NCBI GenBank assembly: GCA_041694815.1
Contig: JBGFSC010000013.1
Coordinates: forward strand, 1-25,683
From: Elusimicrobiota bacterium
GTDB lineage: Bacteria; Elusimicrobiota; Elusimicrobia; UBA1565; JACRDR01
Direction: 5' to 3'
Length of the DNA stretch: 25,683 nucleotides
A program made the translations under genes and the position numbers. The notes under the pieces were generated by a model that ran no database searches, was not told the DNA's origin, and saw nothing but the letters and a program-made list of their open reading frames with translations. This document shows positions 333 to 25,146 of this stretch, in pieces; within the stretch, counting starts at the first letter, position 1; each line of letters starts with the position of its first letter.

Positions 333-2165
333 ATGAGCGTGAGGCTCAGGAAACGCCTCTTGCTTCCATTCATCAGCTTAGGGCTGATGTGGGGAGGGCT
401 TTTTGCGCCCTCAGGCCGCGCCTTGGCCGCCACTGGCAATCCTTTGGATTTCAATGTCACAGTCACAGTGCTACCAGAAACACCTCCCGCCAACATTTCC
501 GATCTCGTGGCCGTTCCAGGCACCGCCGAAGGAGAGGTGAAACTCACCTGGACCAGCCCGGGCGATGATGGGATATTAGGGGATCTCGTTAATAGCAAGT
601 TTCTAATTAAATTTTCGACAGCGCAGATCGACACTTGGACCGACCCGGCCAATATTGTCATATCCACAAACGCCATTGCCCTAAGCAGCCAGACCTATTT
701 CGTCCAGAATCTCGAGCCTGGCGTCACCTACTACTTTGCGATTCTGGCCGAAGATGATATTGGCCAAAGAAATACATGGTCGCGATCTGGCGGCACCAAT
801 GCCAACAACTTCGCTATTGCGACCGACTTGGCACCGCCCACGCCCTCCGGATTCTCCATCGTGGGCGGGAACAATCAGCTCACGCTATCTTGGAATGCTG
901 TCGCGGTCGGCGATCTAGATTTCTATCGCTTGCATATTGATTCAACTCCCCCGTATGACTTTGGGAATGTTTTCACCATCAATGTATCATCCACCGCGAC
1001 ATCGTTCGTGCATGCCGGCCTAACCAACGGAAATACTTACTTCTATTTCATCACTTCAGTAGATAGGGGCAGCCCAGCCTTCCCAGGTCTGGCCCTGGAA
1101 TCTCCACCATCCTCGATTGTCAGCATGGCTCCTGGAGACACGCTGCCGCCCGCAGCCGTCGCAGGCCTTTCCGGACAACTCTCAGCCGATGGCCTGACCT
1201 TTAACATCATGTGGGACACGGTCACTACCAACGCCAATGGGACCCCCATAGCCGATCTGTCTCTCTACAGAATTCTCAAATCGACAGGCCTCTTTGCGCC
1301 CACGACAGCCACATTCAATCTACCCGCGTCCCAAACATCATTTGCGGACACCGTTAACAACAACGTCTTCTACTACAAGGTCAGGGCCGTCGATACCAGC
1401 GCCAATGAGTCAATGGACTCGAACTCGATCATCTCCCAGGCCAAGGCGAATATCTTAGCTCCTGCTGATGACGGTAAAACGTTCCTGATCATTTCCGACC
1501 AGGTCGCCACAGAACTCCATAAAGCCAACAACGCGGCAGGGAGCAATCTGGTTATAGTTCCAGTCCGACTGCCAGCCGAAGAAACTGGGAACGTGTTGAA
1601 ATCCTATCGCTTTGAAGCCAGGCGAGCGGAGGATAACCAGCCAGTCACGCAGTTCTCCTTCTCAAAACCGATGGTCAATGTTCTATTCGGCTTTGTCACA
1701 GGCTCCGGAATAGGCTCATTGAACCACACAGATAAAAAGCTCTCCATTTACTGGAACAACGGGGCAAGGTTCATCAGCCTAGGCGGACATCTCAATTTCA
1801 CTGAAGGAACCGTCAACGTGCTCAGCTCCAATGTTGGTCGGTACCAGTTACGACTCCTAAGCGGAGCTGCCGACACATTGCTGACCGATGGCTCTCCTTA
1901 CCCCAGGGTCATTACCCCCAATGGGGACGGCATAAACGATCGTGTCTTCTTCTTCTTTGAGGCGACCGATGCTCCCAAGGACGGCAGGATCTATGACCTT
2001 AATGGGGCCTTGGTCGGTAGCTTGAAGTCCGGCCCAGTGCCGGATTCTTCGCTTGTATGGGATGGGAAGGATGATCGGGGCAATGTAGTACCCATGGGCG
2101 TCTATCTGTACAAGATTAGTATCGGTGACAAGAATGCTACGGGAACGGTAGTGGTGGCGAGATGA
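333..2165 (+). CDS. Secreted fibronectin type III repeat protein with gliding-motility-associated (CHU_C/FlgD-Ig-like, T9SS type B-like) C-terminal domain
   Basis: Signal peptide (…GRALA-ATG). Three FN3-like units (VKLTWTSPGDD…LEPGVTYYFAI; LTLSWNAV…LTNGNTYFYFI; IMWD…YYKVRAVD). C-terminus PRVITPNGDGIND…IYDLNG…WDGKDDRG…GVYLYKI…VVVAR. Confidence 0.85.
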   Translation: MSVRLRKRLLLPFISLGLMWGGLFAPSGRALAATGNPLDFNVTVTVLPETPPANISDLVAVPGTAEGEVKLTWTSPGDDGILGDLVNSKFLIKFSTAQIDTWTDPANIVISTNAIALSSQTYFVQNLEPGVTYYFAILAEDDIGQRNTWSRSGGTNANNFAIATDLAPPTPSGFSIVGGNNQLTLSWNAVAVGDLDFYRLHIDSTPPYDFGNVFTINVSSTATSFVHAGLTNGNTYFYFITSVDRGSPAFPGLALESPPSSIVSMAPGDTLPPAAVAGLSGQLSADGLTFNIMWDTVTTNANGTPIADLSLYRILKSTGLFAPTTATFNLPASQTSFADTVNNNVFYYKVRAVDTSANESMDSNSIISQAKANILAPADDGKTFLIISDQVATELHKANNAAGSNLVIVPVRLPAEETGNVLKSYRFEARRAEDNQPVTQFSFSKPMVNVLFGFVTGSGIGSLNHTDKKLSIYWNNGARFISLGGHLNFTEGTVNVLSSNVGRYQLRLLSGAADTLLTDGSPYPRVITPNGDGINDRVFFFFEATDAPKDGRIYDLNGALVGSLKSGPVPDSSLVWDGKDDRGNVVPMGVYLYKISIGDKNATGTVVVAR

Positions 2166-3850
2166 GGAAAAGAATATCGATTCTAGCTGTCCTTTCCCTC
2201 TGGGGCCACCTCTTTGCTCCTCGAGTAGAAGCAGCCTTTGAGCGCCAGGATACTGGCGCGAGGCAGAGCAGTATGGGCGGGGCCTTTAGCGCCGTGGGAG
2301 GAGATATCCACTCGTTGCTCCATAATCCGGCGGGTTTGGCTTACTTAAATCGCAAGGAATTCAGTTCTTCATACAGCAAGCTTTTCATAGGACTCGACGA
2401 TAAATCCGATCTCTCGAGCTCGCTGCTGATCTATGGCCAGCCAATCAACCGTTGGGGCAGCCTCGGAACCGGCTGGCTGGAAATGAAACTAGACAGCTTA
2501 TATAAGGAAAGGACTTTAGCCCTAGGGTATGGGCATACGTGGACGGATAAGCTGGCCTTGGGGGCCACTCTCAAACAACTGCAGGTGTCGGTGGAGCCCC
2601 CTGGAACCAACTACGACAATAACGGAATGGTTGAGACCAAGGCAGACCCAACCTTTGCCAGAGGAAACACGGCCAGCGGCATCGGTGTGGACCTAGGCCT
2701 GCTCTATGAGCCCATTCCGAAATACAGTTTGGGCCTGTCTTTGCAGAACATCAACCAACCCAAGGTTGCCCTGGCGGACTCTAATCGGATACCCACCCTA
2801 ATGCGATTCGGGATTGCGCACCGAAGCTCCGCGTTCTTAGTCACCTCGGAAGTACGAACCCAAGAATATCTCCAAGGGCAGAGAGATTACCAAGCCATCT
2901 TCGCGGCGGAGAGGTGGAAGTCGTTGGGACCCATCTCCAGCTTGGCCCTAAGAGGTTCCATGGGTTTTGGCAGCCGTTCCTTCAGCCAACTAACCCTGGG
3001 AATGGGTTACCGCCTCAATGGCATGCAGATGGATTACGCCTTCCTTATGCCGCTCTCCGGCGTCTCCTTCGGAAGCACGTATGGAACTCATCGGCTATCC
3101 CTCTCGCTGCGCTTCGGCAAAACAGTCCCGCGAGAAATTCAATGGGGGCTCGGTGAGGCACCCCGGGACTCGGAGGAACTAGAGGCGGTTAAACAACGCG
3201 CAGCCCAGGCGGAACTTCTAGCGCAGCTCTTGCAAGACAAGATCAAGAAGCTTGAGGAAGAACTGGAAAAACAGAAGCAAATCCAGGCTTCTACAATGAC
3301 GATAGTTGGCAAAGAGCCGGCAGTTCCTGAAGTCAGCCGCGAAGAAGTCTTGCGCGGCCTGGAGGAGGAAATCCGGCTTCTGAAACAGGAACTGGAAAGA
3401 GCCAGGCAGCGAAAATTAGCCAAGCCCGCTCCCGTTGCAACGCCAGAGGTCCGCACACTTCCTCCGGACCCAGCGAAAGCCCAGGATCTATACAAAGAAG
3501 GTGTGCGCTACTATAGCAATCGCCAACTCGAGAAAGCCGCTAAGGCATTCCGCACAAGCCTTGAATTAGATCCGACCAACGAGTGGGTGAAAAAGTCGCT
3601 GGAAAGAACCCTGGTCGAACTGGGAACAGAACAAAAGTCCCAGGAGCCGACCACCAGACCGCAAGGAATACAGTATTCGACCAAAAAGGGAGACACCTTA
3701 TGGAGTCTGGCCAAGGAATTCTACGGAGATCCCTACAAATGGACTCTTATCCGAGACGCCAATCCGGGGATCAAAGACGCTTATGGGCTGCCAGATGGAA
3801 CTGTCATTACAATTCCCCAAGTCCCCGCTGACTCAGGAGGTAAGCCATGA
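2162..3850 (+). CDS. PorV/UPF0164 (FadL-like) outer-membrane beta-barrel fused to coiled coil, TPR and LysM
   Basis: Signal peptide. GARQSSMGGAFSAV…NPAGLA N-terminal motif, amphipathic strands ending GTHRLSLSLRFG, a K/E-rich coil, a TPR (AQDLYKEGVRYY…LELDPTN) and a LysM (KKGDTLWSLAKEFYGD…W…I…AN). ATGA overlap with the upstream gene. Confidence 0.8.
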   Translation: MRKRISILAVLSLWGHLFAPRVEAAFERQDTGARQSSMGGAFSAVGGDIHSLLHNPAGLAYLNRKEFSSSYSKLFIGLDDKSDLSSSLLIYGQPINRWGSLGTGWLEMKLDSLYKERTLALGYGHTWTDKLALGATLKQLQVSVEPPGTNYDNNGMVETKADPTFARGNTASGIGVDLGLLYEPIPKYSLGLSLQNINQPKVALADSNRIPTLMRFGIAHRSSAFLVTSEVRTQEYLQGQRDYQAIFAAERWKSLGPISSLALRGSMGFGSRSFSQLTLGMGYRLNGMQMDYAFLMPLSGVSFGSTYGTHRLSLSLRFGKTVPREIQWGLGEAPRDSEELEAVKQRAAQAELLAQLLQDKIKKLEEELEKQKQIQASTMTIVGKEPAVPEVSREEVLRGLEEEIRLLKQELERARQRKLAKPAPVATPEVRTLPPDPAKAQDLYKEGVRYYSNRQLEKAAKAFRTSLELDPTNEWVKKSLERTLVELGTEQKSQEPTTRPQGIQYSTKKGDTLWSLAKEFYGDPYKWTLIRDANPGIKDAYGLPDGTVITIPQVPADSGGKP

Positions 3851-5244
3851 GGCTGCGTAGCCAATTTTTTCTGACGATGAGCCTGCTCATTTCTTTCATT
3901 CTGGCCTTCGTCGCGTTGACGCTTATCGCGATGGAACGGCAATTCCTGGTCAAGGAAACCGACAGACGTCAGCGTGCGGCGTTGGAGAGCGTCGCGGGGA
4001 TCGTTCGGGAAGCCCACATCACCCGCGATCCACTTTTGATGCTCAACTATCTCAAGCTGAGTGAACAAACCTATCCGGAAATTGGCTGGCTATGCATCGT
4101 AGATTCAGAGGGCAAAATTCAGGCAAGTCTGGATATCAACCTGTTTGGAGTGGACCGCAGCAGCGTCAGCTTGCCAGAGAATATTGTGCTTCTCAGCCAG
4201 GAAGTGGTCTCCAATGGACGCGGTCTCGGTCGCGTCGAGGTTGGATTCGATCAAGTTCGACTGGAAAGTTATATCCAAGCCTCCCTACTAAAAGTCAGAA
4301 ATCGCGTTACTGTCATAGGCTTGTGGGCATTGCTCCTGGGTTTTTTTGGTTCCCTGCTACTCGCTTTGAATCTAACGCGCCCCATAAGGCTCCTTTCCGA
4401 CGTAGCCAATGAGATCGGGAAAGGAAAGTGGGACACTCCCGTCCCCACGGCCAAACGAAAAGATGAGTTGGGCGATCTATCCCGATCGTTCCAGAAAATG
4501 ACCGCTCAACTCAAGGAGCTAGACCAGATGAAGCAGGACTTTGTCGCTAGCATGACCCATGAACTGCGCTCTCCCCTAAGCATCATTGAATCCCATGCCA
4601 ACTCCGTTCTACAAGACCTTGGACAAGCCCAGGGCCTTTCTCAAAATGACAGGAACGACTGGATATCCTCCATGGCTCACATCAAAGACAGCGCCTTTCG
4701 GCTCAGCCGCTTCGTCACAGAACTTTTGGACATAGCCAAAATCGAACGAGGGAAGTTGGACCTGAACCTTCAGAAGGTCTCGCTTGCCTCAATGATCCAT
4801 GAAATTCTGGCGTCCTTGGTTCCGAAGGCTGAGGAAAAAAAGCTGACCCTTTACGAACAGATAGGTAAAGACCTGCCTGCGATCTATGCTGACCCCGATC
4901 GCATCCATCAAGTTTTCATTAATCTGATTGGAAACGCTTTGAAATTTACTCCCGAGGGCGGAAAGATCATCGTGGGTGCCCAGGCACTTTCCCAGGGCTG
5001 GGTTTATGTCAAGGTGGTCGATACAGGACCTGGAATTCCCCAGGAATTCATGAGCCGGATTTTTAGCAAGTTCGAGCAAGTCAAGGGACTCCATGATCGC
5101 AGGCAAGGCACTGGTCTTGGCTTATCCATATGCAAGGGCATTATAGAAAGCCATGGCGGGAAAATTGGCGTCAAGCTCAACGACGTGGGGGGCAGCGAGT
5201 TTTACTTCACGCTTCCTATGGCCGAAAATGAAAAGACCGTCTAA
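3847..5244 (+). CDS. Membrane sensor histidine kinase (2 TM, HAMP, HisKA, HATPase_c)
   Basis: H box MTHELRSPL, N box NLIGNALKFT, G1 DTGPGI, F box IFSKF, G2 GTGLGLSIC. HAMP LTRPI…DELGDLSRSF. Confidence 0.95.
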   Translation: MRLRSQFFLTMSLLISFILAFVALTLIAMERQFLVKETDRRQRAALESVAGIVREAHITRDPLLMLNYLKLSEQTYPEIGWLCIVDSEGKIQASLDINLFGVDRSSVSLPENIVLLSQEVVSNGRGLGRVEVGFDQVRLESYIQASLLKVRNRVTVIGLWALLLGFFGSLLLALNLTRPIRLLSDVANEIGKGKWDTPVPTAKRKDELGDLSRSFQKMTAQLKELDQMKQDFVASMTHELRSPLSIIESHANSVLQDLGQAQGLSQNDRNDWISSMAHIKDSAFRLSRFVTELLDIAKIERGKLDLNLQKVSLASMIHEILASLVPKAEEKKLTLYEQIGKDLPAIYADPDRIHQVFINLIGNALKFTPEGGKIIVGAQALSQGWVYVKVVDTGPGIPQEFMSRIFSKFEQVKGLHDRRQGTGLGLSICKGIIESHGGKIGVKLNDVGGSEFYFTLPMAENEKTV

Positions 5245-5254
5245 CGGAGGACAA

Positions 5255-5632
5255 ATGAAATACAAAATCCTCGTTGTGGAAGATGAGGCGGGGCATCGTA
5301 ACTTGTTGGAACGAACATTGAAACGAGCGGGCTTCGAAGTATTGTTCGCCGTGGACGGGGCCCAGGGGAGGGAGATGCTCCAAAAAAATGCTGTGGACTT
5401 GGTAGTCTCGGATTGGAATATGCCCAAGCTCAACGGCGGGCAGCTAGCATCGTGGATTAGAAAGACGGAGAATCTGAGACACCTGCCCATCCTTATGCTG
5501 ACGGTCCGCGATAAGGCCGAGGAGGAAGCCCTGGGGTTTGCCAGCGGAGCGGACGATTACCTTCAAAAGCCATATTCTACTGCGGAACTTGTGGCCCGTA
5601 TTGAGAGACTTCTTAGCCTGCGCAGCCGTTGA
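5255..5632 (+). CDS. Stand-alone response regulator receiver protein
   Basis: GGAGG RBS before ATG 5255, shorter than the track ORF. ILVVEDE, SDWNMP, MLT, ADDYLQKP motifs; no output domain. Confidence 0.93.
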   Translation: MKYKILVVEDEAGHRNLLERTLKRAGFEVLFAVDGAQGREMLQKNAVDLVVSDWNMPKLNGGQLASWIRKTENLRHLPILMLTVRDKAEEEALGFASGADDYLQKPYSTAELVARIERLLSLRSR

Positions 5633-5650
5633 AAGAAGAGGGCAGTAACA

Positions 5651-6472
5651 TCACCCGCACACTTTCATGATCTGCATGATCTGCTGTTCGGCTCGCGTGA
5701 GAATTTCGAGCTCCTGTAGAGTGAGCTCTGAAGTGTTATCTTGGCGATACCAAGACCTGAGCAATTCGTAAAAACGCAGACGCAGATTAGGATTAGGTAT
5801 CTCTGCACCAGGAACTGAAAGCAAATTAGCGTATGAGAATCCCGGTTCCTTCATCTTGGCGGCCCAGTATCTCGCCTTAAGCCCTAGAACCTTCTCTTCC
5901 AGAGCCACTATGGCAGGCGCTGCCCCGCCACAGTTCCTGCCCCAAGGGGTTTTGGCAGACGACTCATCCCATACACAGACCTTCGGTCCATGGCGACACA
6001 AACCCTCTGGCCGCTTGAGTTCTAACTCTCCGACCGCCGCATGGAGAATCCTTCCTGTCTCCACATCAATCATGCGGGCGTGTATTTCTAGTTGGTGCTT
6101 GGAAGGGAGGACGGACCCCGTGACGATGGCATCTGCAGCAAGTATCCTGCCCAACTTTTTTGCGTGGTCTGGCAGACTTGACTCGGTCGAGATCAACTTG
6201 TGTTCTTCTATCACCCTGTCCAGTTGTATCCGCTCCACAACGACAATATCCTCTAAACGAGTCAATTGGGTGGTCAGGCGCTCCGCAACGTTCTTCCCTT
6301 CGGGGGTGGCGCGCCTATCCATCGAGACAAACTCGACCACTACTACTTTATTAACCTTATACTTTCGGCAAGCGTTGGCGAATTCCTTAGCCATTGCCTT
6401 GAAGCTATCGGCCGCAGAAATTGGTGAAGCCGCCAGACTAAAGACGAAAAAAAATAAGACTCTAGCCACCAC
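5651..6472 (-). CDS. Exported FlgO/CsgG (TolB_N-like) domain protein
   Basis: Signal peptide. VVERIQLDRVIEE…AKKLGRILAADAIVTGSV…ARMIDVETGRIL signature. GGGGGC upstream of the GTG. Confidence 0.75.
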   Translation of the reverse strand: MVARVLFFFVFSLAASPISAADSFKAMAKEFANACRKYKVNKVVVVEFVSMDRRATPEGKNVAERLTTQLTRLEDIVVVERIQLDRVIEEHKLISTESSLPDHAKKLGRILAADAIVTGSVLPSKHQLEIHARMIDVETGRILHAAVGELELKRPEGLCRHGPKVCVWDESSAKTPWGRNCGGAAPAIVALEEKVLGLKARYWAAKMKEPGFSYANLLSVPGAEIPNPNLRLRFYELLRSWYRQDNTSELTLQELEILTRAEQQIMQIMKVCG

Positions 6473-6646
6473 GCCCCCTATCGATTCTAAGGCCCTTCAA
6501 GCGTACCTCGGAGAACTTACGTCAAGCTCACAACCCGCTTAAATTTGGCTTAATTCTGGAGACCAGGGATCAAGCCATCCCGGCCGTCATCATCACGGCT
6601 AGTGACAATGGACAGGAAGATGCCTGACCTGGTCAGGTTAGGATGG

Positions 6647-7534
6647 CTACGCAAATCGAGGATGGGCCTGCCGGCAGGTGCTGCGCATTAAAGCGGTGGA
6701 GACATGCGTGTATCTTTGGGTGGTGAGCAGACTTGAATGGCCGAGGATCTCCTGGACTACGCGGATGTCCGCCCCGCCCTCCAATAAAGCCGTCGCGCAG
6801 CTGTGGCGCAGGACATGGGGCGTCACCCTGGCTGAGATCCCCACCCGGCGCGCCGCCGCTTCAAGTCGTCGCCCGAAGCCGCCCCGCGTAATCGCCCCGC
6901 CGCGACGGTTGAGGAATACGGTGTCACTGGTCACCGGGAAGCGGGCGCTGCGGGCCTCGAGGTAGCGTCCCAAGGCCGCCCCGGCCCTCGGCCCGACCGG
7001 GACGAGGCGCTCCTTGGAGCCCTTGCCCATCACGCGCACCCACCCCTCCTGGATATCCACTTGCTCGAGTCGCAGGCTGACCAGCTCCGAGACGCGCATC
7101 CCCGTAGCGTACATAAGCTCAAGCATGGCGTGGTCCCTTAGGGCCGAGTACTTGGCTCCCAGGGGCGGGTGAAGCAGCCGATCCATGGCCTCCGGGGCCA
7201 GGGGTTTCGGGATTCGCTGTCTGAACCGGGGCAGGCGCATCCCGGCGGTCGGGTCCGCCGGCGTGAGCCTGGCCTCAGCCAGATAGCGGTGAAACTGCCT
7301 GATCGCCATTGCGGCGAGGAATAGCGACGCAGATTTGATGCCCTCGCTCTTGCGGCACTCCAGGTAGGCCAGCACATCCTCGCGCGAGGCCGCAGATGGC
7401 TCCCTGCCCCTTTCCCGGAGGAAGGTCAGGTAGCCGCCGAGCTGGTAGCTGTAGGACTGGCAGGTGTTGGGCGCGAGCCCGCGCTCCACCGTGATGTGCC
7501 GGATAAACTCCTTGAGCAGGTCCACGCCCATCAT
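6647..7534 (-). CDS. XerD-like tyrosine recombinase/integrase (295 aa)
   Basis: N-terminal ERGLAPNT…Y SAM-like domain. Catalytic R (YATGMRVSEL), K (GKGSKER), HxxR (HVLRH), LGH and Y (TTQRY) are all present. GGAGGT RBS before ATG 7534; the 387-aa track ORF is over-extended. Confidence 0.92.
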   Translation of the reverse strand: MMGVDLLKEFIRHITVERGLAPNTCQSYSYQLGGYLTFLRERGREPSAASREDVLAYLECRKSEGIKSASLFLAAMAIRQFHRYLAEARLTPADPTAGMRLPRFRQRIPKPLAPEAMDRLLHPPLGAKYSALRDHAMLELMYATGMRVSELVSLRLEQVDIQEGWVRVMGKGSKERLVPVGPRAGAALGRYLEARSARFPVTSDTVFLNRRGGAITRGGFGRRLEAAARRVGISARVTPHVLRHSCATALLEGGADIRVVQEILGHSSLLTTQRYTHVSTALMRSTCRQAHPRFA

Positions 7535-19990: not shown

Positions 19991-20100
19991 GCTCGTCCCT
20001 AAGGACAAAAGACCCATCCTCGGTAGGCCCAAAACGACGGCCAGGCTTGGGACCTTTGGCACTCGCGATGCCGCTCCTTTTCCCTAATATTACTTGGGGT

Positions 20101-21390
20101 ATGCAGGCCATCCTGCTTGCTTTATCGTTATTGATCTGGGTGCAGCCCTCGGTTGCCGCGCAAAACTCCGGGCTGCTGGAGAAACTCGATTTTCGAAAAG
20201 CAAAGGCCGAGACCATCATCGAACAAAAGTGCTCCGGTTCGTACCTAACATCTCTTTCGATAAGCGCTGACGGGCTAAAGATAGCCTTATACGGCGCCCT
20301 CGAAGGCGGCGCATCTATCTTATCGAGCGAGAGCGGCACCCCCATTGCCGGTTGGCGAGGCGGGGGGCAAATCATGATCGCTTCTTTCAGCCCTGACGGC
20401 ACAAAATTTGCCGGAGTGACCGACGCATGGACGAGCAACCGCTTGATCGTCCAGGATCTAAGAACGCGGGAGCTCAAGGAAATAGGGGCTCCCGGCCATT
20501 CTATTTTTTCATTCGCATTCAGCCGCGACGGCTCTAAAATAATGACCAGCAGCTTCGATCACTATAATTCGACCGGCTCGAACTCGACCGACTCACATAA
20601 AATCCATGTTTGGGAAACGCAGACAGGAAAGCATCTGCTAACGCTGACCAAATTCCAAAACGGCCTCGCTGACGCGAACGCAGACCCGGCTGGCTCGCAA
20701 ATCAATCTTCTAGACTGGGACTTACCTATCGCCTTCCAGTCTCGCAGCTCGAAAATTCAGGTATTAGGCGAGCGCTCTTATTTCGGATCCGATATTTTGG
20801 CGAATGGTGCCTCCTTAAGCCCGGATAAGACGAAACTCGCGACCTTCTACTCGAATACAGTGACGATCTGGGATGTAGCCACGGGACGCGCCTTGAAGGC
20901 ATTGCAACATCCCAAAGGGCAGCATGTCTATAATCCGGTAAAGACGGCCTCGTTTAGCCGCGATGGATCGCGGCTTGTCACGGCTGATGAAAAGGGAACC
21001 GCCGTCCTATGGAACCTGCAAAATGCATTGAAGCCCCATCGCGCTTTCCAAGGCCAAGGATATATCCATTCGGCGCTATTCGGCCCGAACGATTCCACGG
21101 TGATTTTGGGATATTTCGATAAATCGATCGTTTGGGACATCGAGAGCGATATCGTTATCTCGACGATCGAAAGCCGTTCTCATGACCTACTTCTTAAGCC
21201 GGATAAGGGCCGCGTGCTGAGCATAGCCGACGAGGGCGATCCCAAGTCCACGATGACGACGGTGGTCAAGATATGGAACGTCGGCCCTACCGCTCAGGAA
21301 CTTGAAGACGCCCGCCGGCTCCTAAACAACCGAGCCGTGCTGCCCGCCTTCGACGGCGAAACCGCAGCCGAGCGCTTCAAGCTACAATGA
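20101..21390 (+). CDS. Exported divergent WD40 repeat protein with C-terminal ETAAERFKLQ tail
   Basis: Signal peptide MQAILLALSLLIWVQPSVAA; FSPDG/FSRDG and IWD/VWE repeats. Confidence 0.85.
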   Translation: MQAILLALSLLIWVQPSVAAQNSGLLEKLDFRKAKAETIIEQKCSGSYLTSLSISADGLKIALYGALEGGASILSSESGTPIAGWRGGGQIMIASFSPDGTKFAGVTDAWTSNRLIVQDLRTRELKEIGAPGHSIFSFAFSRDGSKIMTSSFDHYNSTGSNSTDSHKIHVWETQTGKHLLTLTKFQNGLADANADPAGSQINLLDWDLPIAFQSRSSKIQVLGERSYFGSDILANGASLSPDKTKLATFYSNTVTIWDVATGRALKALQHPKGQHVYNPVKTASFSRDGSRLVTADEKGTAVLWNLQNALKPHRAFQGQGYIHSALFGPNDSTVILGYFDKSIVWDIESDIVISTIESRSHDLLLKPDKGRVLSIADEGDPKSTMTTVVKIWNVGPTAQELEDARRLLNNRAVLPAFDGETAAERFKLQ

Positions 21391-22007
21391 TGCATATCGC
21401 CCTCCTCGCCGTTCTTGGATTTTGCGGCAGCGCCTATCCCGCGGACTCGCCGGAGTCGCAGAAAGCCGAATCTGACGCGCCTTTTGAGGCTGTCGCTCAA
21501 CGTGAGGGGAAGGGGGTCGCGCTGCCCGCCGCTGCCGCGAAAAAGCCGACCGTTGCGCCGGCGCCACAGGCAAACGCGAATCTAGCCGCCCCCCAGCCTC
21601 CGACGCCGAAATACTGGGAAGAGCGCTGGCGCGCGAGCGGCGGTGGTTGGGGTTTTCTGGTCTCCATTGTCGGTTCTCAACTGGCATACTGGACCTTTGT
21701 TATTTTAAATAGCCTTGATCACATCATCCGCGATCCGTTTTTACTCGTTCCTATTATCGGATTAGGCGTCATGATCCTCGCCTGCGGCGGTATGGGAGTA
21801 GCCGCCGGAGAATCGATAGGCGGATCCCTGGGCCGCGAGAGGGATCGGGAAGAACGAGCAGCCTACAAGAAGGCGTTGCGCGCTTACAAGAAGCAGGAAG
21901 CGGCAAAGAAAAAAGAAGAGCTGAAACGCAAGCTCGCCGCTCCCGCCGTCCCGGTCGATGAAGAGTCCGTCGACGACTCCGCCGAAGACCGGTTCAAGCT
22001 CCAATGA
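21387..22007 (+). CDS. Signal-peptide protein with Gly-rich hydrophobic hairpin, coiled coil and DDSAEDRFKLQ tail (paralogue 1)
   Basis: ATGA overlaps at both ends; clear paralogy with 22004-22621, with mostly synonymous changes. Confidence 0.85.
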   Translation: MMHIALLAVLGFCGSAYPADSPESQKAESDAPFEAVAQREGKGVALPAAAAKKPTVAPAPQANANLAAPQPPTPKYWEERWRASGGGWGFLVSIVGSQLAYWTFVILNSLDHIIRDPFLLVPIIGLGVMILACGGMGVAAGESIGGSLGRERDREERAAYKKALRAYKKQEAAKKKEELKRKLAAPAVPVDEESVDDSAEDRFKLQ

Positions 22008-22618
22008 GCCTCATCTACCTCATCGCTTTTTCGTTCTTCTGCGGGCACGCTCATTCGGAGGGCTCACCGGAGTCGCGGAAGGCCGAGTCGGACGCGCCGT
22101 TCGAGGCCGTCGCCCCAAAAAGCGACGATGGGCTCGTTCTGCCCTTAGCCCTTGCTCAAACACCGGCCGGAACGCCGGCGCCCGCGTCGGCCGGCTCGTC
22201 CGCCCCCCAGCCCCCGGCACCAAAGTTCTGGGAGAATCGCTTGGAAAAGAAGGGCAAGGATTTGGGCGCTCTCATCGGCATCCTCGGTCTCGAACTGCCA
22301 CTGGCCGCCGGTTTTATTTCCAGCAATAGCCTTGAAACGATTCTGTCTCTTCCCGGGATAACGGTTTTGGCGAGTTTCCTATTCCTTGGCCTTGTGGGCG
22401 GCGCGATTATCGGAACTGTCGCCGGAGGAGCCCAGGGCAAATCCATGGGACGCAAGAAGGATCTCGAAGAGCGGATAGTCTACAAGAAGGCGTTGCGCGC
22501 CTATAAAAAGCAGCAAGCGGCCAAGAAGAAAGAAGAATTATTGCGCAAGCTCGCCGCCCCCGCCGTCCCGATCGAGGAAGAGTCCGTCGACGACTCCGCC
22601 GAGGACCGGTTCAAGCTC
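21864..22618 (+). repeat. 138-bp imperfect direct repeat (21864-22001 and 22481-22618)
   Basis: Hand alignment: 16 of 138 nt differ and 42 of 46 amino acids are identical. Confidence 0.92.
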
Positions 22619-22621
22619 TAA
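22004..22621 (+). CDS. Signal-peptide protein with Gly-rich hydrophobic hairpin, coiled coil and DDSAEDRFKL tail (paralogue 2)
   Basis: ATGA overlap with the upstream paralogue; same architecture. Confidence 0.85.
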   Translation: MSLIYLIAFSFFCGHAHSEGSPESRKAESDAPFEAVAPKSDDGLVLPLALAQTPAGTPAPASAGSSAPQPPAPKFWENRLEKKGKDLGALIGILGLELPLAAGFISSNSLETILSLPGITVLASFLFLGLVGGAIIGTVAGGAQGKSMGRKKDLEERIVYKKALRAYKKQQAAKKKEELLRKLAAPAVPIEEESVDDSAEDRFKL

Positions 22622-22714
22622 TCGCCCCGACAACATTCTAGGCCTCTAGTCCCACGCGTTTTTTCCCCGGACGGCCCGCGCTTGTCGATATTGATTTAGG
22701 TCATACTGCTGCCC

Positions 22715-25135
22715 ATGATCCGAACCCTGCGCCTTTTCCTGGTTTTATGCCTGCTCGCGCCCAGCGCTCCGAAGGCATCCGATCGCCAACAGACGCTCGC
22801 GGAGATCTGGACGGATTTAAAGGCCGTTCAAAGGCGGCTGGAGGCCGTAGGCCTGCACTCCTCTAGGGCATCCGAGCTCACCGAAGAGCAGCTCCAATGG
22901 ATCCAGGCGCGGCATCCGCTGGAAAGCCATGATCTGCACTCCATCGTCATGGGCCACCCGCGCGGGCTTATCCTGAGGGCCCAAGAAAGCTCGTCCGACG
23001 TCCACTACCTCGGGAAATTAAAGGAATGTCTACAGCTGGCCGACGAGATATCCTCTCTGCTAAGCCCGAAGCTGCAAAAGGAGGTGCAGGCGGCGCTTTC
23101 TCAGGTCCGCGCCAAGCTGACCCAAGCCCGCGGCGAGTCGTTTACGGATACCATCCGTTCCCAGCAGCGGGACTGGCAGATCAGCAACAACGGAGAGAAT
23201 GATCCCTTCACGGGCGGGCAGGGGAACCCCCGGCCCGACTCCAGCGGCGAGATCGTCCCCTTCGCCAATAATCCCCAGAAAGCGCTGCCGCCTCCCCCTC
23301 CTCCCCGAATCCCGACACCGACCTTGGACCTGCTCTCGGTGGACCTGACCGCCTTGGCCAAGGAAGGCAAGATGGACCCGGTGCAAGGCCGAGAGAAGGA
23401 GATGGAACAGCTCATGGAGGTGCTGCTGCGCAAGGGCAAGCCGAACGCGGTCTTGGTCGGCGAGCCCGGCGTGGGCAAGACGGCCATCGTAGAAGGGCTG
23501 GCCCAGAAAATCGCCGCCGGCAAGGCCCCGGCCGCGCTGGGCAACCTGCGCATCGTGCGCTTCGACGTGGGCTCGCTTATCGCCGGGACCAAGTACCGCG
23601 GCGAGTTCGAGGAAAGGCTTCAGAAGGTGCTCCAGGAGCTCAAATCCGCCAAGGACGTGGTCCTGTTCATCGACGAGCTGCACACGGTCATCGGGGCCGG
23701 CGCCGCCGAGGGCGCCGTCGACATGTCCAACCTGCTCAAGCCCGCGCTCGCGCGCGGCGAGATCCGCGTCATCGGCGCGACCACCGTCGACGAGTACCAG
23801 CGCATCATCCAGTCCGACGGGGCCTTCGAGCGGCGCATGGAGAAGGTGATGGTGCTCGCCCCCTCGGCCCAGGAGACGCTCGAGATACTCAAGGCCATAC
23901 GCCCCAACTACGAGAAGTTCCACAAGGTGCAGTTCAGCGACGAGGCCTTGGAGGCGATCGTCGGGCTCGCGCCGCGCTACATGCCCTACCGACAGCTTCC
24001 CGACAGCGCCATCGACATACTCGACAAGTCCGGCAGCCGCGCGCGCCTTAAGAACGCCGAGAAGGTCGGCCAGGAGGACATCCGCTCGATGGTGGCCTCG
24101 ATGACCGGCATCCCCTTGGAGCGTCTGAGCTCCAACGAGCAGGAGCGCCTGCTCAAGATCGAGGAGTTCCTGCGCAAGCGCGTCAAGGGCCAGGAGGAGG
24201 CCCTGGCGACGGTCGGCGAGGCCGTGCGCCAAGCCTACGCGGGGCTTAAGATCGACAACGGCCCCTTGGCCACGCTGATGTTCGTCGGCCCCACCGGCGT
24301 GGGCAAGACCGAGCTCGCCAAGGCCCTGGCGGAGTTTCTCTTCGGCGACGAGAAGGCCTTGATCCGCCGGGACATGACCGAGTTCCAGGAAAGCCACGAC
24401 AAGAGCAAGCTCATCGGCTCGCCCCCCGGATACGTGGGCCATGACGAGACCCCCTGGACCGAGGAGATCCGCAACAAGCCCTACAGCGTCATCCTGCTCG
24501 ATGAGATCGACAAGGCGCACCCCGACATACTCAAGCTGCTGCTGCCCATGCTCGACGACGGGCGGCTCACCGACAGCAAGGGCCGCACGGCGGATTTCAA
24601 GAACGCCATCGTCATCATGACCTCCAACCACTTGAGCCGCAAGTTCTTCGACGACGCCTCCAAGCCGCGCCTCGGCTTCAGGAAGGACGGCGACGCACGT
24701 CAGACCCCGACGCTTAAGACCCGCAAGGAGGAGGTGCTCGCCAGCCTGCGCCAGGTGCTGCCCCCCGAGTTCTTCAACCGCATCTCGGTCTCGCTGTTTA
24801 ACCCCCTGGACCGCCCGACCCTCAACGAGATATTCGACGGCATGATGGCGAAGGTCGAGCAGAACCTCAAGGCCAACCAGCTGAGCCTGGAACTGAGTCC
24901 CGAGGCGCGCGCCTTCTTATTGGAAAAGGGCTACGACCCGCAACTGGGCGCTCGGCCGATGAGGCGCGCGATCCAGAATTATCTCTTCGGCCCTTTATCC
25001 AGGAAGATGCTCGGAAAACACTCGCAGCGCCTCGTCGCCAAGCTCGCGCCCGACGGCGCCGGGCTAGTCATCGAGGACGCCGACGCCCCCCTCGCGAAAG
25101 CGGAAGACGGCAAAAGCAAAGGGCCTGCGTCGTAA
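22715..25135 (+). CDS. ClpA/ClpC-type double AAA+ ATPase with atypical signal-peptide-bearing N-terminus
   Basis: NBD1 [25 protein letters not shown]2 [28 protein letters not shown] loop present; no ClpB middle domain. Confidence 0.93.
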
Positions 25136-25146
25136 CGCAGGCCCTT
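25119..25146. terminator. Intrinsic terminator hairpin between convergent genes
   Basis: AAGGGCCTGCGT-CGTA-ACGCAGGCCCTT perfect 12-bp stem; T-rich tail on the minus strand. Confidence 0.8.

Follow-up and report, generated by a model that had tools for sequence, protein, structure and literature searches.

We analysed a window of 25,683 nucleotides, by which we mean the whole stretch of DNA at its full length, on contig C2 of the source genome (G000; 2.77 Mb, 97.8% complete), whose other contigs are cited below as C3, C9, C15 and so on. The gene under study is an open reading frame of 806 amino acids (22715-25135, forward strand), and the 5' portion singled out in an earlier, first-pass annotation of this DNA corresponds to its first 209 codons. 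Residues 201 to 790 form a class I Clp core with matches to the Pfam families AAA, AAA_lid_9, AAA_2 and ClpB_D2-small. The features of the locus are as follows.

20047..22621, forward strand: a WD40 protein and two paralogous orphans with leader-like starts and a common RFKL tail, upstream of the Clp gene (context only)
22702..22707, forward strand: −10-like hexamer CATACT, possibly marking a leaderless start, 7 nt before the ATG and with one mismatch to TANNNT
22715..22777, forward strand: predicted Sec/SPase I signal peptide, residues 1-21 (hydropathy heuristic with controls; twin leader at C40:18993)
22778..23194, forward strand: orphan helical N-domain in the Clp_N position, residues 22-160 (no relatives, low GC3; structure model)
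23195..23314, forward strand: predicted disordered linker ending in P6-RIP, residues 161-200 (sequence and model)
23315..24064, forward strand: NBD1, an AAA+ domain with its lid; Walker A/B, pore loop 1, sensor-1 and Arg fingers intact
24065..25084, forward strand: NBD2 and the D2-small domain, directly after NBD1 and without an M-domain; Walker A/B, pore loop 2 and sensor-2 intact
24671..24679, forward strand: LGF tripeptide in the ClpP-docking (IGF/LGF) loop, in alignment with that of ClpC
25119..25146, no strand assigned: likely terminator, a 12-bp hairpin that spans the stop codon and separates the Clp gene from the convergent YtxH gene

Both Walker A and B motifs, sensor-1, the Arg fingers, sensor-2 (GARP) and the Tyr pore loops (KYRG and GYVG) are intact in the two AAA+ domains, which is the motif set of class I Hsp100/Clp ATPases. 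The motif alignment bears out the first-pass annotation, which had described both NBDs, both pore loops and a docking-like PRLGF loop (residues 651-655, with LGF at 653-655) as intact. The Walker A motifs lie 276 residues apart, compared with 282 in a Clp_N-bearing ClpA-like protein, 338 in ClpC and 402 in ClpB, and the query therefore has no M-domain of the ClpB or ClpC kind: both alignment and spacing indicate the absence of the UVR M-domain of ClpC and of the long coiled-coil M-domain of ClpB, the latter as stated before. The best match among solved structures was B. subtilis ClpC (3j3s, E = 2 × 10−175), whose alignment is split in two where the query lacks the M-domain, and the core is 45% identical to the source genome's own ClpC. 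None of the NCBIfam cut-offs was reached (626 of 993 bits for ClpA, TIGR02639, and 584 of 885 bits for TIGR03345). Judged by its motifs and scores, the query is a class I Clp ATPase variant that belongs to none of ClpA, ClpB, ClpC or ClpV, and we infer that it would form hexamers, hydrolyse ATP and thread substrates.

The query resembles ClpA and ClpC in its two AAA+ domains with all motifs and in its IGF/LGF loop, and ClpA in particular in NBD spacing and in the absence of an M-domain, but it differs in lacking the Clp_N double repeat and the UVR M-domain and in carrying a signal peptide and an orphan N-domain. With ClpB/Hsp104 (TIGR03346) it shares the two-NBD core, but not the coiled-coil M-domain, and it has a docking loop that is missing in 14/14 ClpB. 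ClpV/TssH and ClpG/ClpK are Clp cores with a specialised, substrate-picking N-domain that act in the cytoplasm and keep a Clp_N-type domain; the query likewise has a specialised N-domain on a Clp core but scores far below the cut-off, and no T6SS sheath gene (PF05943, VipB) was found in the source genome at 97.8% completeness.

The gene caller places the start at ATG 22715, with the next in-frame ATG at codon 79. The first-pass annotation had taken the hexamer CATACT as support for this start. The hexamer does lie 7 nt upstream of the ATG, and starts across the source genome, in which leaderless-type spacing is common, show an excess of TANNNT at distances of 6-9 nt (106 genes at 6 nt vs. about 20 at other distances). 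However, CATACT mismatches TANNNT at its first base and a promoter scan called no sigma-70 site upstream of the gene, which is a weak point in the case for this start. No clear ribosome-binding site was found ahead of the ATG.

Residues 1 to 21 comprise basic, hydrophobic and polar regions in that order, with a possible cut after A21 or S17. We scored leaders with a hydropathy heuristic of our own with controls, distinct from SignalP, that looks for an uncharged 9-residue window with basic residues ahead of it. The best such window of the query scores 3.37, with two basic residues ahead; only 41 of 2,478 N-termini in the source genome reach at least 3.3, none of 33,816 windows taken from within Clp cores attains 3.0, and the maximum among ordinary Clp frames of other bacteria (n = 76, taken from a genome-wide locus scan dominated by ordinary Clps) is 2.4. 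The hydrophobic leader reported earlier is thus predicted by the heuristic as a signal peptide with a score above those of the internal Clp-core windows and the ordinary Clps. The best 19-residue window scores 1.51 and the protein has no other hydrophobic segment; it therefore lacks a full transmembrane helix, which favours a cleavable signal over a membrane anchor. The suggestion that the protein is membrane-tethered and faces the cytosol fits poorly with a hydrophobic stretch of about 9 residues that has basic residues on its N-terminal side and no transmembrane segment after it. By inspection against the consensus motifs, the leader contains neither a lipobox (Leu precedes Cys12) nor a twin-Arg motif (no RR). 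A cut after A21 would place Pro at −3, in line with the earlier remark that the cleavage site is not a canonical AxA, and a twin leader with the same kind of site is found at C40:18993 of the source genome (10/15 residues identical across the h/c-region). ClpA, ClpC and ClpB are defined as cytoplasmic proteins without a signal peptide, whereas the query has a Sec-type leader according to the heuristic and its controls, and we consider its export from the cytoplasm probable.

The N-domain is followed by a linker whose P6-RIP stretch (residues 192-200) is the PPPPPPRIP linker described before. The N-domain region is the sole open frame of the six and has a hexamer score of 54, compared with at most −26 in 1000 shuffles, and is therefore coding. 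We found no relatives of the domain: it matched none but itself among 1,869 candidates (near lengths only), occurring on one contig, and there were no matches among 1.84 billion protein representatives, in the ESM Atlas or elsewhere in the source genome. Neither Pfam nor NCBIfam contains a matching family, Clp_N included; hhalign against Clp_N gives a probability of 0.2% (E = 0.35), and a profile of 31 Clp_N regions scores 2.4 bits, a value reached by 17/2000 shuffles and exceeded by unrelated longer helical extensions. A single-sequence model predicts 7 helices (pLDDT 53), for which Foldseek, one of the checks proposed in the first-pass annotation, returned no match at E ≤ 0.001; the best fold match is a generic helical bundle (Z 8.6, rmsd 3.0, 99 aligned), and Clp_N is missing among the 50 fold matches listed, which says little for a model of pLDDT 53. 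We also considered an eroded Clp_N, suggested by an alignment with the junction of the ClpC repeats that is roughly collinear though below threshold (−0.4 bits), but the profile tests are non-significant and this origin is not supported. The sequence searches thus agree with the earlier claim that the N-domain is unlike Clp_N, and they link it to no other known domain.

The lower GC3 of the N-domain noted previously was reproduced (0.77 vs. 0.92-0.93 in the core). By the size of this drop the query is 3rd among the 231 genes of at least 600 codons in the source genome, and the 1st rank is held by the nearest paralogue, on contig C15, whose core is 59% identical to that of the query and whose N-domain (model pLDDT 49) is unrelated (E = 1.7). 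Both N-domains have foreign codon use. The GC3 drops of the two paralogues, taken together with unrelated heads on 59%-identical cores, support the proposal that the N-domain was grafted onto the Clp core, although fast divergence is a possible alternative source of the difference. A swapped N-domain would likely choose which proteins are destroyed.

The source genome encodes five Clps, one housekeeping ClpC and four with leader-like starts (the query and those on C15, C9 and C25), of which the C9 and C25 proteins fail the leader score rule. In a phylum-wide core search with three candidates scored per genome, the query core gave single-piece matches in 30/401 genomes of the phylum, 27 of them among the 59 other genomes of its own order; one core match outside the class is a Clp_N-bearing ClpA-like protein. 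A metagenome scan yielded 2 loci, both ordinary Clps. We extracted 75 Clp frames, excluded 6 with fewer than two Walker A matches, and obtained 34 short-middle frames without Clp_N, 30 of which have a complete 5' end. When any start within the first 140 codons was allowed, which inflates every count, the leader rule was passed by 27/30 complete short-middle frames, compared with 0/9 ClpC, 0/2 Clp_N-bearing short forms, 2/14 ClpB (both internal segments of short frames) and 9/76 ordinary Clps of other bacteria, none of the last above 2.4. The leader is kept across relatives that are about 40-50% identical and have different N-extensions, so that the homologues do not, as a check proposed earlier had allowed for, start downstream without it.

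The closest homologues occur in the five genomes of one genus (g10), and four proteins from it form a clade with the query and the C15 paralogue (SH-aLRT 99, quick tree). All six members start with a leader and none has a transmembrane segment, of which some long relatives have many. In quick trees, this clade is separate from a 25-member clade of longer proteins, and the comparison with housekeeping Clps called for in the first-pass annotation places the query branch apart from ClpC, ClpB and one ClpA-like row. A single origin of the exported Clps was not rejected (AU p = 0.33, quick-mode trees with an open backbone). The sister group, which has weak support (87), comprises two short-middle Clps that carry Clp_N and from which the query's core may derive. 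A wrong start or a decaying gene, in which translation truly starts at codon 79 or close to the core, making the leader incidental, would suit the weak promoter, the lack of a clear ribosome-binding site and an N-domain that is confined to one contig and has no homologue to show selection. We consider this very improbable, given an open, coding-like frame in which every motif is intact and a leader that stands at the start of all six clade members and most of the relatives.

No conserved gene neighbourhood was found for the query Clp across its relatives, and the three genes at 20047..22621 were not found beside any of them. The RFKL tail of these genes was examined as a feature shared with the Clp, but the Clp lacks it. 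In the source genome, the tail [AS]E[EDQ]RF[KR]L has 25 matches in 24 called genes, and 24 of the matches lie within 14 residues of the stop; beyond the window it occurs in 20+ other genes (e.g., C12:311, C20:67935, C38:19429, C46:334 and C54:65786), and the genes with the tail have mostly leader-like starts (by eye) and are in many cases WD40-like. None of the examined loci from relatives showed the tail, which is a candidate genome-specific sorting tag. At the other end of the window, a block of lower GC (333-6500, about 52% vs. 63%) encodes an fn3/CHU_C-FlgD protein, a PorP/SprF-like TPR-LysM protein and a two-component pair, and adjoins a tyrosine recombinase gene (6647-7534) that is followed by small phage-like ORFs to about 11300; this block is possibly an integrated element. 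Among the longer relatives, about 24 clade-B and long-middle Clps (L066-L099) share a leader, an Ala/Pro/Ser-rich stretch and an FD(G/A/L) motif 90-180 residues from the start, and several are polyproteins of 1,500-3,400 aa with transmembrane bundles and further enzyme-like segments. The FD(G/A/L) motif was rejected as a signal of the query, from which it is absent (score −6.2), and it is not enriched among leader-bearing proteins of the source genome.

The IGF/LGF loop, which we take to be the ClpP-docking element, behaves as if under selection: the motif [LIVM]G[FY] is kept in 31/34 short-middle frames and 9/9 ClpC but absent from 14/14 ClpB and 9/9 long-middle leader-bearing frames, and the residues around it vary freely. 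In the query clade, an LGF-type loop is kept in 6/6 members. ClpA and ClpC are partners of ClpP and ClpB is not, according to one report (PMC7355975). The source genome has two ClpPs, both without a leader, and a tig-clpP-lon cluster without clpX (C3:6252-10597). ClpX, ClpA and ClpB were not detected in this 97.8% complete genome, so that a single ordinary partner remains for its two cytoplasmic ClpPs.

These findings would suit a Clp that stays in the cytoplasm, with a leader that is inefficient or leads only to membrane association, and works with the cell's own pair of ClpPs as a substitute for the missing ClpA and ClpX; a non-canonical cleavage site and an export prediction that comes from a heuristic point the same way. 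Basic residues ahead of a hydrophobic stretch direct the remainder of a protein outward (the positive-inside rule), however, and the query has such residues ahead of one of the most hydrophobic N-termini of the genome, and no transmembrane helix by which it could return. Leaders of the same kind are also found on Lon, FtsH, adenylate kinase and ClpP families, and we regard a cytoplasmic role as improbable.

The ClpP family in question consists of a leader, a coiled coil and a ClpP domain in which the catalytic Ser and His are aligned, and is apparently an exported ClpP. It is present in 55/401 genomes of the phylum and in 3,009 database proteins at E ≤ 1 × 10−40 (loci L107-L124, e.g., L121:4927-6501, forward strand; the L110 copy adjoins single-NBD AAA_2 genes). 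It was not found in the source genome by an unfiltered HMM search and a family search, nor in the genus of the closest homologues (0/5 genomes, 91-97% complete). Exported ClpP and short-middle Clps do not co-occur in the order (n = 59 genomes: both in 13, each one alone in 14, neither in 18), and none of the exported ClpP genes adjoins a short-middle Clp.

Besides the Clps, the source genome encodes a narrow set of leader-bearing proteins, mostly AAA+ quality-control enzymes and an adenylate kinase: FtsH, Lon, the adenylate kinase (C9:74299-74958, abutting the C9 leader-bearing Clp, with a housekeeping copy also present) and a MoxR-VWA pair (C20:61456-66542, a MoxR-type double AAA_5 protein and its VWA partner). 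There are also two TLC-like carriers, one encoded directly after the leader-bearing FtsH gene and the other 5 kb from a fourth Clp. At three loci (L091, L092 and L094), a leader-bearing Lon or adenylate kinase adjoins Clp relatives; a second adenylate kinase is present in 20/50 relatives searched, and a TLC match in 30/50 genomes searched. In the genus of the closest homologues, each genome has one adenylate kinase, Lon matches are of the housekeeping type only, and no TLC carrier was found (0/5 genomes, with a protein query that can miss divergent carriers).

The leader-bearing Lon, FtsH and adenylate kinase, the TLC-like carriers and the exported ClpP of relatives suggest an option that the first-pass annotation had not considered, an ATP-supplied extracytoplasmic space of the cell itself. 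The Clp would then work in the cell's own periplasm or envelope, where TLC-type carriers supply ATP and the exported adenylate kinase recycles it, either within an extracytoplasmic proteostasis kit or, like Plasmodium HSP101, as a motor for translocation; its LGF loop would bind exported ClpP where this is present, and would here be a relic or bind another ring. The narrowness of the exported set and its gene adjacencies fit this arrangement, as does the precedent of HSP101, an exported Hsp100 motor (PMC7355975). Against it stand the absence of exported ClpP from the source genome and from the closest genus, its lack of co-occurrence with the Clp, and a closest genus in which TLC carriers, a second adenylate kinase and leader-type Lon were not found. 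Moreover, TLC carriers usually import ATP, and porins would leak it from the periplasm. We hold an ATP-fed periplasm to be a serious possibility, with a chance well short of even.

The explanation that we favour, tentatively and at a little under an even chance, is that the Clp is secreted into or against a prey or host cell and uses the ATP and ClpP of that cell, its N-domain choosing the targets. Sec would take the Clp, as a soluble protein, across the inner membrane, its signal would be cleaved, and a secretin system (of the type II, type IV pilus or Tad kind) would release it from the cell. The target bacterium would supply ATP and ClpP, on which the Clp would dock by its LGF loop, and the variable head would select substrates for destruction. 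The stripped Lon and FtsH would act as digestive enzymes, the exported adenylate kinase would stretch the prey's adenylate pool, and the TLC carriers would take up nucleotides.

We counted in favour of secretion the conservation of the leader and docking loop among the relatives; a query clade that keeps the loop throughout, yet lacks exported ClpP in the source genome and the closest genus; the absence from that genus of TLC carriers, of a second adenylate kinase and of any but housekeeping-type Lon; the lack of co-occurrence of exported ClpP with short-middle Clps; and the unrelated N-domains of the paralogues with their foreign codon use. To these we added the 4 secretins and 10 T2SSE-family ATPases of the source genome, the operons of which we take, from their motifs, to be type II secretion, type IV pilus and Tad loci, together with the TLC-like carriers and a leader-bearing protein of 13,779 aa (C38:58886-100225). 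Very large genes are tied to predation in Omnitrophota and are present in Elusimicrobiota, according to a preprint (10.1101/2023.11.21.568195). An analogy is offered by Microsporidia, in which enzymes that are otherwise cytosolic have gained signal peptides and act where parasite and host meet (PMC6460350); the secreted hexokinases are ATP-using enzymes of a host-dependent organism, but they are metabolic enzymes of a eukaryotic parasite, so that the likeness is one of strategy without homology.

Counted against secretion were the leader-bearing Lon, FtsH, adenylate kinase and MoxR-VWA pair, which look self-sufficient outside the cytoplasm and which, with the Lon and adenylate kinase neighbours of Clp genes, fit a compartment of the cell's own fed with ATP as well; the presence of exported ClpP in 55/401 phylum genomes; and the cytoplasmic ClpPs left with one ordinary partner. 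No route from the secretor's periplasm into the cytoplasm of another bacterium was identified in the source genome, which has no T6SS sheath gene. A broader version of secretion appears rather unlikely, namely that Elusimicrobia export swappable-head Clps into prey or host bacteria and capture their ClpP and ATP to destroy chosen proteins, acting as natural effectors of targeted degradation with the support of exported Lon, FtsH and adenylate kinase and, in many relatives, of an exported ClpP of their own.

To our knowledge, ATP-driven Clp machines are held to act only in the bacterial cytoplasm. Plasmodium HSP101 (ClpB2) reportedly carries a signal peptide. Like the proposed role of the query, HSP101 is an Hsp100 ATPase active outside the producing cell, in the PTEX translocon of the vacuole, but it is eukaryotic and ClpB-type, has an M-domain and Clp_N, and works without ClpP (PMC7355975). 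A full-text search, which covered few subscription journals, found no report of signal-peptide-bearing Clp ATPases in bacteria, and the accessible parts of PMC5177795, PMC2605481 and PMC12546842 contain nothing on exported Clp. What appears to be new here, as judged from sequence comparison, is a family of leader-bearing Clps in Elusimicrobia with evidence for head swapping, a docking loop that is conserved in the query clade without an exported ClpP of its own, and an exported ClpP family in relatives.

Within the family, the query, soluble, 806 aa long, complete in its motifs and fitted with a small head that can be removed, is the member that lends itself best to experiments. Targeted protein degradation is a field in which Clp cores able to carry unrelated heads are of interest. 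Either of the likely readings, secretion or an ATP-fed periplasm, would, if true, break the cytoplasm-only rule for Clp machines, and an ATP-fed periplasm would overturn the textbook statement on the diderm envelope. If the Clp is instead a secreted unfoldase that borrows the ATP and ClpP of another cell, it would be an interbacterial effector of a new class, and a predatory or host-attached life would be indicated for these uncultured Elusimicrobia.
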